Assembly: GCA_951406725.2 (NCBI GenBank)
Contig: OX597827.1
Location: forward strand, 69,378,001 to 69,442,000
Direction of reading: 5' to 3'
Length of the DNA: 64,000 bases
Source: Octopus vulgaris
Taxonomy: Eukaryota
How positions within the stretch are numbered: the stretch's first letter is position 1; each line of letters begins with the position of its first letter. Below the pieces are notes generated by a model that was not told the origin of the DNA, did not search any database, and saw nothing but the letters and a program-made list of their open reading frames with translations. Shown here piece by piece: positions 2,657 to 64,000 of the stretch. The translations under genes were made by a program, and so were the position numbers.

Positions 2657-3030
2657 CTAGCAGTATCGCCCGGCGTTGCTCGGGTTTGTAAGGGAAATAA
2701 CTATAAAGCATTTTTAGAGAGTTATAGCCAAAAAATAGCAAAAAAAAATGGAAATAAAATGATGGTAAATTTTTTTTGAGAGTTAAAAAGGTCGAGTTGC
2801 GTCCCCTAGACAGTCTGTGGCTTGTGTTTCTGATTCTCGACCCCATGTCGAATTTATCGATTTTTTTCAGAACTGGGGGAACTTTTCAAAATTTTCGCTG
2901 CGTTAGTTTTGAATTATGACATTGGGCTATGTATGTGTCAAGTTTCATCAGAATCGGTTGAAAGCCGTGGTCAGGGTGAGGGTACAACCTAACAGACACA
3001 CAGACAAACTGCCGTTTATATAGAGAGAGA
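2657..3030 (-). mobile_element. Non-autonomous Helitron
   Basis: Minus strand starts A|TCTCTCTCTATATAAA and ends with hairpin cccgagcaacgccggg followed by CTAG|T. Confidence 0.8.
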
Positions 3031-5257: not shown

Positions 5258-5490
5258 GAGGCGAGCTGGCATAATTGTTAGCACGCCGGGCGAAATGCGT
5301 AGCCGTATTTCGTCTGCTGTTACGTTCTGAGTTCAAATTCCGCCGAGGTCGACTTTGCCTTTCATCCTTTCGGGGTCGATAAATTAAGTACCAGTTACGC
5401 ACTGGGGTCGATGTAATCGACTTAATCCATTTGTCTGTCCTTGTTTGTCTTCTCTGTGTTTAGCCCCTTGTGGGTAGTAAAGAAATAGGT
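5258..5490 (+). mobile_element. tRNA-derived SINE family A (Meta-domain-like core gtcgactttgcctttcatcctttcggggtcgataaa)
   Basis: The most abundant repeat in the window, with dozens of copies on both strands. Confidence 0.85.
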
Positions 5491-5810
5491 GGAGGCGCAA
5501 TGGCCCAGTGGTTAGGGCAGCGGACTCGTGGTCGGAGGATCATGGTTTCGATTCCCAGACCGGATGTGGTGTGTGTTTATTGAGCAAAAACACTTAAAGC
5601 TCCACGAGGCTCCGGCAGGGGGTAGTTGCGACCCCAGTTGTACTCTTTCGCCACAACTTTCTTTCACTCTCTCTTCCTGTTTCTTGAGTAACGCTGCAAT
5701 GGACTGGCATCCCGTCCAGCTGGGGAGGAACACATACGCCATAGAAACCGGGAAACTGGGCCCATGATCCTGGCTAGGCTTGAAAAGGGCGCATAAATAA
5801 AATAAATTTC
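5491..5810 (+). mobile_element. tRNA-derived SINE family C (resembles octopus OR-type SINEs)
   Basis: Head ggaggcgcaatggcccagtggttagggcagcggactcg...ttcgattccc. Copies at ~28128, 41851, 44667, 46453 (+) and ~6147, 7390, 32027 (-). Confidence 0.8.
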
Positions 5811-6167
5811 ACAGTAGGCAGGCTGAGTTGTCAGTTATGTGAATTGTTATTGCTTGTTCCTTCTTGAGTCATGCCTGGCTCATAAGGGCCGGTTTCCTTG
5901 GTGTATAGGTCCCACACCTGGATGGGACGCCAGTCTGTCGCAGGTGAGCTGCAAGATGCAGGAGGAAAAAGTGAGAGAAAGTTGTGGCGAAAGAGTCTGC
6001 AGAAGTTTCGCCAATACCTTCTGCCGGAACCACATGGAGCTTAAGTGTTTCCCTCATAAACACACACATCGCCCGGTATGAGATTCGAACCTGCGATCCC
6101 TCGACCGCGAGTCCGCTGCTCTAACCACTAGGCCATGTGCCTCTACAGCTATGTGAATACAATACAA

Positions 6168-43000: not shown

Positions 43001-43165
43001 TTCTTTCTCTCTCTCTCTCTTTCTCCCTACACTCCAATTCCATACCTTTTTCCTTCTCCCGTGGGGTAATGATATCTCTTCCAGAATGCTACCAAATTTT
43101 ATTGCATGTGTTTGTTATGTGTGTGTGTTTCTGATGTTTGAAAATTTTCCTTTTTTTTATTGTGT

Positions 43166-43465
43166 AAGGTGTTTATAAGCCATTTAAGAAACACACAAAA
43201 ACCGTTAGATTCACTTCAATATTTAAATTTAATTTGTCAAAATATTTTCGTCGCTTTGGGACCGCGACCTGTTCCCTGACAAAACTGTGATGCAGCATGG
43301 AGATGCACTGACGAAAATATTTTGACAAATTAAATTTAAATGTTGAAGTGAATCTAACGGTTTTTGTGTTTCTTAAATAGCTTATAAACACCTTCCACGC
43401 TGCAACTGTATTCGTTCCAACACATGATCTCAGATCAGGTCACTTGCTATGCAAGTACATCTCCG
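43166..43465. mobile_element. Penelope-like inverted pLTR foldback (same family as 60297-60615)
   Basis: ~85-bp inverted arms; variant hammerhead at 43233-43283 (-). Confidence 0.75.
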
Positions 43466-43960
43466 TACTTTATTTTATTATTCGTGCACTTCCTTTTTAC
43501 TTCACATTTGAAAATGAAACTAAATTAATAACAAAATTCCCATAAAAAGATATTTTTAAATACGCACCCACCCACATATCACCCCTACTTTCTGATCAAT
43601 CCTTCTCACCTTACCCCCCTCTCTCTCTCTCCTCACTGATATTTCTCAAGCAACACTTCCGCCTATGTTATACCCATTCTTAACCCCCTCCACCAAACCC
43701 CCACCAGAATTTCTGACCATCTGCTGCTCTCCCCCCTTACGTCACATATCTTAAAATGCTCTGGCATCTAGTCAACTTGATATACATTCATATATGTATA
43801 TATATGACTAGCTTCTTTTGGTTTCTGTCTACCAAATCCACTCACTAGGCTTTGGTTGGCCCGAGGCTATAGTAAAAGACACTTGCCCAAGGTGCCATGC
43901 AGTGGGACTGAACCCTGAACCATGTGGTTGGTAAGCAAGTTACTTACCGCACAGCCACTC

Positions 43961-46741: not shown

Positions 46742-46781
<40 letters not shown>

Positions 46782-46788
<7 letters not shown>

Positions 46789-47010
46789 TAGAAAAAAAAA
46801 TCCTTTTATCAATTCAAAATGAAAAACTAAATTACACCATCTAGAAAATTACATATAATAGAAATATTAAATATAAGATAAAAAATTATATACCGATGAT
46901 TAAGTAATTTTTATCTTATATTTAATATTTCTGTTATATGTAATTTTCTAGATGGTGTAATCTAATTTTTCATTTTGAATTGATAAAAGGTGGTTTTTTT
47001 CTAATTTATA
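46782..47010. repeat. AT-rich foldback, ~105-bp arms
   Basis: ccttttatcaattcaaaatgaaaaa...tttttcattttgaattgataaaagg; ~16-nt loop. Confidence 0.85.
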
Positions 47011-47222
47011 TATGTATTATATTTTGTGAAATTTGATTTAGTATTTCTAAATTGAATTTTTCGGTGTAAGTTAGGAATAATATTCTCCCAAATTATTATT
47101 TTATATATATGTATATATATATATAACGGGAAGGTTTATGAAAATAAACAAAAGACGAAGGCAGGTGGAGTACAAACAAACAAATGTATTAGTATGGTGC
47201 TCAGGAATAGAAATAGAACAAG

Positions 47223-59049: not shown

Positions 59050-59185
59050 ACATCTTATCAAGGTCTTACCGGTCAGCTAATCTGTTGTGAGGGAAACAAG
59101 TGCAATAACCATACCCTAGCCGGTCCAGAACCACCAATAACTGCCACATGTTACCAGGCCTCCAGGCTCAATGGTACTGTTGTAG
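59050..59185 (+). CDS. Exon 3 of three-finger/LU-domain glycoprotein
   Basis: tctttgcag| acceptor (phase 0); ICCEGNKCN signature, then a new domain start TCYQ; donor TAG|GTACGT. Confidence 0.85.
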
Positions 59186-59359: not shown

Positions 59360-59780
59360 ATGGTACATCATTTGTACGATGTGGAGAATATACCGCCAAC
59401 TTTGCCCAAACGACCTGAACATTAGCTTCAAGGTTCATCCAAGACTGGGACCACGGGCCATACGTCCCCTGCCCAATTCAAGATCACAGCATACATGTAC
59501 ACTGCAACATAATTTCTTTTCATCAACAGGCCCTGCCCTATTTAACATTGTCCCGAGGGAGATCAAAGAGGAAAAGGATCCCAACGGAGTCTGGATAGAT
59601 TCTTTCAAAAAATACCAGATAAGCCACCCATAATTGGATACAACTCACCCAACAAAAGCTCACTACTTGAATGGACCATAAACAAAACTTGACTTAAACA
59701 GGATTTAGATAATCCTATCAGGTGGTGTTATTAAGTTAGACATGGCCTGGACCAATCTTTGGTCGAAACATATCTAAGTT
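59360..59780 (+). mobile_element. LINE ORF2 3' fragment (CR1/L2-group-like)
   Basis: MWRIY..CPN..HPRLG..NFFSSTGPALFNIVPREIK. Confidence 0.65.
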
Positions 59781-59790
59781 TTATATATTA

Positions 59791-60185
59791 CTAGCAGTAT
59801 CGCCCGGCGTTGCTCGGGTTTGTAAGGGAAATAATTATATAAGCATTTTTAGAGATGTAAAGTATAATAGCCATCTCAATATGGCTAACCACAAAGGGGG
59901 AGGGGTGTTACTGTAGCTTTTTACGTTCTGAGATTTAATAATAAATTTTAGAGAGTTACTTCCCTTATATATGTCAAAAATGGATTAAAAATGGGAAAAA
60001 TTGATGGTAATTTTTTTTTTAAATCGTAGACTCATCGTAGACGCGCGCTAATACCCAGACGGTCTCGATATGAATCACGACTATAAGATACCCGCTTTTG
60101 GTTAAACTGCACCGCAAAATGTGGGAGTAGTTAGGAATCTAAATCGTAGGAGACAGACACACAACCTCACTTTTATATATAAAGA
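59791..60185 (-). mobile_element. Non-autonomous Helitron (mirror copy begins at 63653 +)
   Basis: A|TCTTTATATATAAAA start; same hairpin plus CTAG end as the 2657 element. Confidence 0.8.
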
Positions 60186-60248
60186 TTTCCTCTATTTACA
60201 TAATATTGAGGTCTCTTTCTTTCTTTTGTTATCTTACTGTTTTTAACA

Positions 60249-60279
<31 letters not shown>

Positions 60280-60296
60280 AATGTATAAATAGTTAC

Positions 60297-60615
60297 AGAG
60301 ATGTACTTGCATAGCAAGTGACTTGATCTGAGATCGTGTGCTGGAACGAAAACAGTTGCAGCGTTGAAGGTGTTTATAAGCCATTTAAGAAACACACAAA
60401 AACCGTTAGATTCACTTCAACATTTAAATTTAATTTGTCAAAATATTTTCGTCGCTTTGAGACCGCGACCTGTTAGCACGATATTTTTGTCAGTGAACAG
60501 GTCGCGGTCTGAAAGCGACGAAAATATTTTGGCAAATGAAATTTAAATGTTGAAGTGAATGTAACGGTTTTTGTGTGTTTCTTAAATGGCTTACAAACAC
60601 CTTCCACGCTGCAAT
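60297..60615. mobile_element. Penelope-like inverted pLTR foldback with G3-C8 hammerhead variant
   Basis: ~120-bp arms; motif at 60486-60536 (+), mirrored at 63310-63360 (-). Confidence 0.75.
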
Positions 60616-60945
60616 ATATATATACACACATATATATATATGTATGTATGCATGTATGTGTGTGTGTGTGCGTGTCTGTGCTTGTGATTGTCCTCCACCA
60701 CTGCTTGACAACGAATGTTGGTTTGTTTACATCCCTGTCACCTAGTGGAAACAGATAGAATAAGTACAATGCTTACAAAAATAAAACTGGAGTTGATTCA
60801 TTAAACTACAATTCTTCAAGGCATTGCCCCAGCATGGCCACAGACCAATGGCTGGAAAAAGCAGAAGAATAAAAGAATACATTCTCTGCTTTGGTCTTAT
60901 GTTCAAGGCATAAGAAAGCTTGAGTTTACATGAGAAGGCCTAACA

Positions 60946-61535
60946 GACCTGGTAGAAACAGCAGCCAAATCTCCCTCAAATCACACCTTACTGTTTTATG
61001 TATGTATATATATATGAGCCAATGAGGGGCACCTCTACATGGTAGCTAGACCTGGTAGAAATAGCAGCCAAATTTCCCCCAAATCACACCTTACTGTCTT
61101 ATCTATGTATATATGTATGTATGAGCCTATGAGGGAGACCCCTACATGGCAGCTAGACCTGGTAGAAATAGCAGCCAAATTTCCCCCAAATCACACCTTA
61201 CTGTCTTATCTATGTATATATGTATGTATGAGCCTATGAGGGAGACCCCTACATGGCAGCTAGACCTGGTAGAAATAGCAGCCAAATTTCCCCCAAATCA
61301 CACCTTACTGTCTTATCTATGTATATATGTATGTATGAGCCTATGAGGGAGACCCCTACATGGCAGCTAGACCTGGTAGAAATAGCAGCCAAATTTCCCC
61401 CAAATCACACCTTACTGTCTTATCTATGTATATATGTATGTATGAGCCTATGAGGGAGACCCCTACATGGCAGCTAGACATGGTAGAAATAGCAGCCAAA
61501 TCTCCCTCAAATCACACCTTACTGTCTTATCTTTC
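60946..61535 (+). repeat. 107-bp tandem repeat (about 5 units; about 3 in the mirror arm 62600-62980)
   Basis: Near-identical ORFs recur every 107 bp (61039, 61146, 61253, 61360). Confidence 0.95.
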
Positions 61536-61546
61536 TGCTACTTATA

Positions 61547-61582
61547 TTCGTCGTAAAAAACTTTCCTGTCACACACTCACGC

Positions 61583-61618
<36 letters not shown>

Positions 61619-61631
61619 GCGCACCCTCACA

Positions 61632-61662
<31 letters not shown>

Positions 61663-62580
61663 GCGCGCACACACACGCACACACACACACACACACGCAC
61701 GTTAGCTTACAATTTTATTTATATATTTGCGTGTCTGTGTTGAAAGAGGAAGTGGGAGGCAGAGTGAAAGAATCACTCACTACAGTAAGTCAATTACTTT
61801 CATTTTATTCGCTGCCCACTGTGTGTGTGCGTTTGCGTGTGGTGTAAACCAGACTAAGAAAAGCATTTGACACACACACCAGAATGTGAGTTTTCTGTAA
61901 ATTTTGCTTAATTGGAGTTTAAATTTTAAAAACTGGACCTGGCATGACGCGATGCATTGTACTCTTAAAATTGCTAGGTAAATTGTAATTGAAGAAATCC
62001 TATATTGTAGATTTGTATAACTCCCAAAGGGAGGCAGATAAAATCTGCCTTTTATAATAAGAGATATCTCTTATTATAAAAGGCAGATTTTATCTGCCTC
62101 CCTTTGGGAGTTATACAAATCTACAATATAGGATTTCTTCAATTACAATTTACCTTGCATTTTTAAGAGTACAATGCATCGCGTCATGCCAGGTCCAGTT
62201 TTTAAAATTTAAACTCCAATTAAGCAAAATTTACAGAAAACTCACATTGTGGTGTGTGTGTCAAATGCTTTTCTTAGTCTGGTTTACAGCACACGCAAAC
62301 GCACACACACAGTGGGCAACGAATAAAATGAAAGTAATTGACTTACTGTAGTGAGTGATTCTTTCACTCTGCCTCCCACTTCCTCTTTCAACACATAGAC
62401 ACGCAAATATATAAATAAAATTGTAAGCTAACGTGCGTGTGTGTGAGTGGGTGTGTGTGGGTGTGCGCGTGTGTGTGTGTGTGTGTGTGAGGGTGTGTGT
62501 GTGTGTGTGTGAGGGTGAGTGTGTGTGTGTGTGTGCGTGTGGGTGGGTGTGTGACAGTAAAGTTTTTTACGACGAATATA
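61547..62580. mobile_element. Two back-to-back 5' portions of a Helitron-like element
   Basis: A|TCTCTTATTATAAAAGG start on each strand (62064 -, 62067 +); no CTAG 3' end seen. Confidence 0.55.
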
Positions 62581-64000
62581 ACACCTATATCCAAGTAGCA
62601 GAAAGATAAGACAGTAAGGTGTGATTTGAGGGAGATTTGGCTGCTATTTCTACCATGTCTAGCTGCCATGTAGGGGTCTCCCTCATAGGCTCATACATAC
62701 ATATATACATAGATAAGACAGTAAGGTGTGATTTGGGGGAAATTTGGCTGCTATTTCTACCAGGTCTAGCTGCCATGTAGGGGTCTCCCTCATAGGCTCA
62801 TACATACATATATACATAGATAAGACAGTAAGGTGTGATTTGGGGGAAATTTGGCTGCTATTTCTACCAGGTCTAGCTACCATGTAGAGGTCCCCCTCAT
62901 TGGCTCATATATATATACATACATAAGACAGTAAGGTGTGATTTGAGGGAGATTTGGCTGCTGTTTCTACCAGGTCTGTTAGGCCTTCTCATGTAAACTC
63001 AAGCTTTCTCGTGCCTTGAACTCGTTTTATTTTTGTAAGCATTGTACTTATTCTATCTGTTTCCTTTGTCAAACCACTAGGTGACAGGGATGTAAACAAA
63101 CCAACATTCGTTGTCAAGCAGTGGTGGAGGACAATCACAAGCACAGACACGCACACACACACACATACATGCATACACATATACACACATACATACATAC
63201 ATACATATATATATATGTGTGTATATATATATTGCAGCGTGGAAGGTGTTTGTAAGCCATTTAAGAAACACACAAAAACCGTTACATTCACTTCAACATT
63301 TAAATTTAATTTGCCAAAATATTTTCGTCGCTTTCAGACCGCGACCTGTTCACTGACAAAAATATCGTGCTAACAGGTCGCGGTCTCAAAGCGATGAAAA
63401 TATTTTGACAAATTAAATTTAAATGTTGAAGTGAATCTAACGGTTTTTGTGTGTTTCTTAAATGGCTTATAAACACCTTCAACGCTGCAACTGTTTTCGT
63501 TCCAGCACACGATCTCAGATCAAGTCACTTGCTATACAAGTACATCTCTGTAACTATATATATATTTATATATATATATATATGTATATTGTTAAAAACA
63601 GTAAGATAACAAAAGAAAGAAAGAGACCTCAATATCATGTAAATAGAGGAAATCTTTATATATAAAAGTGAGGTTGTGTGTCTGTCTCCTATGATTTAGA
63701 TTCCTAACTACTCCCACATTTTGCGGTGCAGTTTAACCAAAACCGGGTATCTTATAGTCGTGATTCATATCGAGACCGTCTGGGTATTAGCGCGCGTCTA
63801 CGATGAGTCTACGATTTAAAAAAAAATTTACCATCAATTTTTCCCATTTTTAATCCATTTTTGACATATATAAGGGAAGTAACTCTCTAAAATTTATTAT
63901 TAAATCTCAGAACGTAAAAAGCTACAGTAACACCCCTCCCCCTTTGTGGTTAGCCATATTGAGATGGCTATTATACTTTACATCTCTAAAAATGCTTATA

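Follow-up and report, generated by a model that had tools for sequence, protein, structure and literature searches.

How does a near-perfect palindrome of several kilobases come to lie inside a gene of Octopus vulgaris? The sequence in question is at the end of the window, a stretch of 64,000 nucleotides on contig C14 of the 2.8-Gb genome, and its junction and arms are known from the assembly sequence. With the next 44 kb of neighbouring DNA added to the window, the palindrome spans 59791-64047 (4.3 kb). The left limit originally given, 59838, was a mere mirror of the window edge, the real start being 59791, while the extent proposed past 64000 was found, the symmetry continuing to 64047 and then stopping. 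Both ends coincide with Helitron 3' ends (hairpin plus CTAG), and the DNA outside them is unrelated. The axis lies at 62065|62066, as originally stated, with 90 bp of perfect symmetry to each side, and consists of two Helitron 5' ends placed back-to-back. The left arm is a complete non-autonomous Helitron of 2274 bp on the minus strand (59791..62064), with its 5'-TC at 62064 and its CTAG end at 59791. The right arm is another complete non-autonomous Helitron, of a different sublineage, with 1981 bp on the plus strand (62067..64047), ending 47 bp past the window end. The symmetry axis is a host TA dinucleotide (62065..62066) between the two 5' ends. The description of the palindrome as spacerless is thus correct only since TA is itself palindromic, this TA being host DNA between two 5'-TC termini.

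Each arm has TC at the axis; its outer end bears a small hairpin, then CTAG, with a T next to it. The TC is the Helitron 5' terminus in both arms, and likeness among copies begins at it; the 3' terminus conforms to CTRR, with CTAG at 59791 and 64047. The hairpin (16 nt, 12 nt before the 3' end) is where a Helitron hairpin is expected, but its -4.5 kcal/mol is no better than shuffles (z -0.64). An A before and a T after the element were found in 41/41 unselected two-ended copies and in both arms, and these flanking bases indicate that the elements enter between A and T and produce no target-site duplication. Exact genome matches to the first 32 bases (5' end) reveal at least 2,786 copies of the family, and 40/40 scored matches to the 5' 351 bp of the left arm have 99-100% identity; the family is young and abundant. 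The 3' end of the left arm is an older Helitron of 395 bp (59791..60185, minus strand; sub-terminal hairpin and CTAG at 59791-59818), with a mirror copy at 63653-64047. The last 28 bases of this element have 17,420 exact matches in the genome, and the share of the family among exact 3' ends is about 16%. There are 802 exact 5' ends of the older element, most of which seem internal to composites. Two further Helitron-like starts had been pointed out in the window: the one at 60185 belongs to the older element, being its 5' end, within the 3' part of each arm, and the one at 3030 looks, by eye, like a similar TC-start of another element. The arms also contain an internal 259-bp self-complementary repeat (90%) at 60356..60614, with a mirror copy at 63232-63490 and a free relative at 43162-43467. 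To the left, the flank (59491..59787) is a dispersed repeat with a TA-rich tail, 88% similar to the flank of copy L001 on C29, which we read by eye as a LINE 3' end.

Candidate partners of these elements were searched among 12 RepHel loci, picked by score class and not randomly. In 6 of the 12, the 5' 239-270 bp are shared at 90-98% identity; these elements are 6.6-7.0 kb long and all six end in a related 3' hairpin-CTAG. The common portion corresponds to the ~270 bp at the 5' terminus of the left arm (61795..62064, minus strand) and, from the arm alignment, to 62067..62336 (plus strand) in the right arm. The RepHel proteins carry the Pfam domains Helitron_like_N and PIF1, and the partner RepHel matches Helraiser (PDB 7lcc, E 2e-199). 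None of the six sampled elements with the shared 5' end has an unbroken full-length ORF, all being broken or shortened, and the shared end is absent from four sampled intact-ORF RepHel elements of another family. From these sequence features, the arms can be assigned to canonical Helitrons (Helitron1), non-autonomous and with RepHel-coding elements as candidate partners.

The global alignment of the arms within the window has 1851 matches and 34 substitutions (1.8%), 15 of the 34 in a (CA)n tract. A gap of 214 bp corresponds to a tandem array of 107-bp units, with 5.5 units on the left (60945..61532) and 3.5 on the right (62604..62977); 58 other copies have anywhere between 0 and 8 units. The right arm lacks 111 bp corresponding to 60788-60900 and carries extra insertions of 11 and 13 bp, and microsatellite lengths also differ. 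All the kinds of difference first described are therefore present, with values refined in the unit counts, the missing segment and the insertions.

These differences allowed us to trace the arms to separate sources. At 24 sites that differ between them, copy L004 has the left state at 23, with 1 unscored, and copy L073 (C25) has the right state at 17 and the left state at 3, with 4 unscored. L073 also has the 111-bp deletion and the 11-bp insertion of the right arm. Both copies were chosen by likeness to the first 350 bases of the arms, and the 18 sites beyond, which are independent, agree. The nearest sampled relative of the left arm is L144 (8 mismatches in 1982) and that of the right arm is L073 (12 mismatches in 1869, 99.1%), while the arms differ from each other by 34. 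As most of the differences are shared with separate copies on other chromosomes, they were mostly inherited from different donors, and arms of different sublineages imply two insertions 2 bp apart. We conclude, with high confidence, that the palindrome is the product of two Helitron insertions.

The pair sits in an intron, as had been anticipated. The host gene encodes an uncharacterised membrane protein of 363 aa, rich in cysteine, whose name was taken from Octopus sinensis; a Pfam search of three single exons gave no match. Its five exons each map once and in order (36075, 56896, 59047, 65549, 70038). Exon 3 is at 59050..59185 on the plus strand (mapped start 59047), exon 4 is past the window end at 65549-65722, and the Helitrons are in intron 3 between them. 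The suggestion that the palindrome might reach and duplicate exon 3 does not hold, with the mirror ending at 64047, the exons single and no part of the gene duplicated. The intron 3 pre-mRNA is predicted to fold into ~1.9 kb of 98% paired RNA, and a transcript of the palindrome would be a plausible ADAR substrate. This octopus is an animal with heavy RNA editing.

Two other origins have been considered for the palindrome, both raised in the original prediction. One element could have been mirrored by foldback or by template switching where the rolling-circle nick is made, the arms diverging later; the axis at the 5' nick site and the membership of both arms in one subfamily would fit this, and in a sample of ~200 loci two of the 18 head-to-head pairs with spacers up to 12 bp, L051 (201 bp identical) and L062 (7 mismatches in 2217), look locally copied. 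However, a copy made in this way would begin identical, which is contradicted here unless extensive later gene conversion is invoked, and most of the arm differences are common to distinct copies on other chromosomes. Since the arms carry different inherited sublineage states and are not mutual nearest relatives, we rejected a foldback-generated inverted duplication at this locus as highly improbable, although a small part of the other sites, such as L051 and L062, may have arisen in this way. We also ruled out a foldback or long-TIR transposon that travels as a single unit, since the same two-armed unit is not repeated among the remaining 17 real junctions (0-12 bp), which have other partners and lengths. 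Alternatively, two haplotypes or a chimeric read could have been joined inverted during assembly, and the arm divergence of 1.8% is indeed on the scale of heterozygosity. Nevertheless, the mirror halts at the element ends and does not enter or duplicate unique flanking DNA, the flanks are unrelated, and the host exons (3 and 4 among them) follow one another in order without duplication. Besides, the arms match different sublineages, and 20 more head-to-head junctions exist on other contigs or places. An inverted haplotig mis-join is thus very unlikely. The reading as two insertions leaves the palindrome itself ordinary, a pair of transposon copies less exotic than first proposed, and it implies that a near-perfect palindrome of several kilobases in an assembly can be a genuine double insertion.

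If two insertions occurred 2 bp apart, the next question is why they met at their 5' ends. Other palindromes centred on the same terminus had been named as something to look for, and head-to-head junctions are in fact present elsewhere in the genome. With spacers of 0-12 bp, 19 were listed and 18 are real (L065 is a chance match); at 13-17 bp, 3 of the 6 listed are real, L213, L214 and L215 having been dropped, which gives 21 real junctions. Their spacers peak at 2-4 bp. Unlike subfamilies are joined in 13/18 head-to-head pairs, and only like-subfamily pairs produce long palindromes like that of the window. For tail-to-tail junctions, the counts were 3 with spacers of 0-12 bp and, among those listed, 10 with spacers of 13-17 bp, one of the latter (L207) a chance match. 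None of these 13 pairs two family members within 4 kb, one junction having a single member, and at 12-17 bp, where the full target motif fits, family pairs are 0 of the 12 listed. A single mixed head-to-head junction with the older 395-bp element was found, a weak control since the 5' ends of that element seem mostly inside composites.

Tail-to-head junctions are far more numerous, with 106 at 0-12 bp (spacers counted to 12 bp). Among the 100 listed of these 106, the spacer is 0 in 58, 12 bp in 25 and 2-8 bp in 9. In 20 fetched junctions with a spacer, a family member is the upstream partner in 11/11 with spacer 11-12 and in 4/9 with spacer 2-10. Exact junctions were fetched at 17 loci, and in 10 of these the two subfamilies are unlike and share little past their ends; the remainder include 1 near-identical array, 1 pair of the same subfamily, 1 partly shared, 3 without an upstream family 5' end and 1 unclear. 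Exact CTAG|TC tandems are often taken as rolling-circle concatemers, and here they are mostly one subfamily inserted before another. The 58 exact junctions bear only indirectly on a putative transposition by way of peeled-off strands and circles.

A three-class target model, crude because it was built from 40 target sites and a 108-kb background, expects, at 0-12 bp, only 0.09 junctions of the head-to-head kind, 0.05 of the exact tail-to-head kind and 0.05 of the tail-to-tail kind. The count of 19 versus 3 at 0-12 bp was set aside as proof of 5' targeting until the 13-17 bp spacers had been counted, since the target motif by itself excludes short tail-to-tail spacers. The 21:0 split between head-to-head and tail-to-tail has P ~5e-5 after allowing for loss of the 3' motif, estimated from 35/43 copies that kept it. 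Regional hot spots add to the junction excess, as copies cluster about tenfold at 0-5 kb (7 observed vs 0.67 expected, for the first 100 on C1); with a 20-fold hot spot assumed, P is still ~1e-12 for the 18 head-to-head pairs. Instability of inverted repeats would probably not explain the polarity, because it would delete head-to-head pairs too. The paired arms have 4.3 substitutions per 200 nt against 8.2 in random pairs (17 pairs; L068 left out), and the same-subfamily share is 5/18 in paired vs 9/120 in random copies.

For the choice of target, an unselected set of 40 loci was used; it leaves out the exact tandem pair located at C1:22.98 Mb, and one duplicate flank was removed (41 to 40). 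Half of these insertion sites (20/40) are (TA)n tracts. In the 20 non-microsatellite sites, the 3' DNA matches the 5' end of the element itself at 7.55/14 bases, compared with 5.47/14 in background AT sites and 6.48/14 in composition shuffles (2/2000 reach 7.55), and a TATAA-like word is found in 12/20 vs 5%. AT sites are equally common on both sides, with 3.8 in 13 bp of 3' flanks vs 3.7 in 5' flanks. As the target resembles the 5' end of the element, a resident end is the best target, which accounts for the exact CTAG|TC junctions, and the length of the motif accounts for the tail-to-head peak at 12 bp, the smallest gap that holds it. In head-to-head pairs the motif lies in host DNA, so target likeness fails there and a pull from the resident end is needed.

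We suggest that the two copies probably inserted in turn, the second drawn by the resident 5' end of its own family. RepHel would bind and open this end, its own nicking substrate, and the incoming element would be joined either at the A|TC nick site of the resident or upstream of it, at the closest AT that is acceptable. Same-strand joining would give tail-to-head junctions with spacer 0, or ~12 bp where room is required for a complete target motif ahead of the resident. For joining to the opposite strand, the motif would be read in host DNA, so that short spacers (mode 2-4 bp) would be allowed, and insertion of like subfamilies would create a kilobase palindrome. Helraiser cuts in vitro at the left-end TC and at the bottom-strand AT, which makes opening and joining at resident 5' ends plausible. 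More tentatively, a transposase docked on the resident 5' end could capture unrelated incoming copies on either strand, with the same specificity as for its own end, and every copy would be a one-sided landing pad. If true, arrays and kilobase palindromes would grow only at the 5' side and be a source of long intronic double-stranded RNA.

The same junctions could come from two independent insertions into one hot spot. During a burst, (TA)n tracts would be struck twice where germline chromatin is open, with the resident 5' end irrelevant and tail-to-tail pairs lacking because of target-sequence needs. The (TA)n tracts at half of the unselected sites and the tenfold clustering agree with this, as does the GC-rich 3' end, which rules out short-spacer tail-to-tail pairs, and other transposons often insert doubly at one site, at least as described in the available part of 10.1101/158386. 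On the other hand, tail-to-tail family pairs are missing even at 12-17 bp among those listed, yet tail-to-head junctions peak at 12 bp, and the two flanks offer AT sites in equal number. Moreover, the 20-fold hot spot leaves the head-to-head excess in place, and upstream partners are mostly of the family although it has only ~16% of the 3' ends; we regard this explanation as unlikely. Simultaneous co-insertion, in which two transposase-bound 5' ends pair and join opposite strands of one opened AT-rich site, agrees with the short head-to-head spacers and with the presence of a 5' end in every enriched junction type. Since partners, being contemporaries, lie nearer to each other in age than random pairs do, it fits that observation as well as sequential targeting does. 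Alone, however, it leaves the exact CTAG|TC junctions of unlike subfamilies unexplained (spacer 0 in the majority of those listed), which fit insertion at the nick site of a resident, and the three-copy clusters at L055, L056, L058 and L060 suggest repeated use. Co-insertion thus seems quite unlikely, and insertion in turn at a resident 5' end is the reading we favour.

Targeting of the resident 5' end would be a modest but testable addition, a one-sided self-targeting rule, on an open step of Helitron transposition, the choice and joining of the target. The spacer geometry (same strand, 0 or ~12 bp; opposite strand, 0-14 bp; none at 3' ends) provides predictions testable with Helraiser. Insertion of a Helitron next to another is already known. 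In the literature covered, we found neither a counted 5' polarity with strand-dependent spacers nor a target likeness to the left end; an overlap with Yang and Bennetzen (2009) is possible.

The in vitro cuts of Helraiser mentioned above, at TC in single-stranded left ends and at AT on the bottom strand, are described in PMC4778049, where 701 re-insertions showed no clustering round three donors. The octopus rate, ~100 junctions in 3.9 million copy pairs, predicts ~0.05 in the Helraiser set, which therefore neither supports nor refutes the rule. For Helraiser and Helibat1, target likeness to the left end and head-to-head insertion were not found in the available portions of PMC4778049 and PMC5876387. 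In Drosophila, P elements and other TEs form dimers, some head-to-head, by double insertion during bursts (McGurk and Barbash, 10.1101/158386). These differ from the octopus pairs in being cut-and-paste or retro elements with target duplications, and the part of that work available has no 5'-end polarity and does not treat Helitrons. The tendency of maize Helitrons to land close to others of their kind (Yang and Bennetzen 2009, as cited in the available sections of PMC12477314 and PMC3288121) is similar to the clustering in octopus and could overlap with the 5' rule.

Two more reported cases resemble the junctions described here. In Fusarium oxysporum, FoHeli4 is inserted 2 bp upstream of the 5' end of another element and self-insertion was proposed (PMC5148889); multiple 5' termini are a further likeness, although these are non-canonical Helitrons with inverted repeats, and the case is anecdotal, with orientation bias uncounted in the part of the article available. 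In the maize BAC AF466202, adjacent dissimilar Helitrons were attributed to consecutive insertion (Du et al. 2008, PMC2267711); the orientation is given as 'head-to-head' in the abstract and 'head-to-tail' in the results. This is one tail-to-head case, and the account, as far as available, contains no opposite-strand pair or genome-wide polarity. Even so, one reading offered there is insertion at an AT that the A of the host makes with the 5' T of the resident, as in the exact junctions of the octopus family.

Two further head-to-head pairs with very similar arms were found among the sampled loci. At C1:137517847 (L051 / L197), a 201-bp 5' stub faces a neighboring RepHel-coding copy across a 12-bp spacer. 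The two are 100% identical over the 201 bp; the stub differs from the nearest other sampled copies at 3-5 sites. This locus is the strongest candidate for a donor 5' end at which local templating took place. The pair at C13:22837895 (L062) has the spacer TA, as in the window's pair; its 2.2-kb arms are only 7 substitutions apart and mutually nearest among the sampled relatives, being possibly a true sister pair.

A copy on another contig (L001, C29:20.107 Mb) matches the left arm of the window's pair identically over the 5' 351 bp. Its insertion site is the tail of a dispersed repeat, and the same repeat flanks the window's pair. Inside the Helitron, there is a 259-bp self-complementary repeat (window 60356-60614 and 63232-63490), with a free relative at 43162-43467. 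The window self-comparison also revealed inverted structures of 256 bp (46769-47022, 89%) and 685 bp (5489-6146, 70%), and a further TC-starting element with a 5' end similar to that of the family lies on the minus strand at 2700-3030. The host gene (36075-70469 of the extended window) encodes an uncharacterized protein of 363 aa that contains cysteine-rich modules (PF01684 in the precomputed Pfam annotation) and, likely, a signal peptide and one membrane span.

Head-to-tail arrays were observed at C6:65.79 Mb (L119), with at least 4 near-identical (99.4%) units of 1.54 kb, and at C24:3.317-3.328 Mb, where near-identical units have three junctions spaced 5.5 kb; both are of the type expected from concatemers or unequal crossing-over. 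A second Helitron family (L195, L196, L199, and L200) contains many long intact RepHel ORFs of 1518-1645 aa, 96-99.5% alike among themselves; their identity with the partner RepHel is about 60-65%. This family was probably active recently.

At L026, L055, and three listed tail-to-head junctions, duplicated 5' stubs of 10-13 bases precede the full 5' end, and copies beginning at the second TC (position 3) are found in the same set. Both features resemble the multiple 5' termini that PMC5148889 describes in Fusarium Helitrons.
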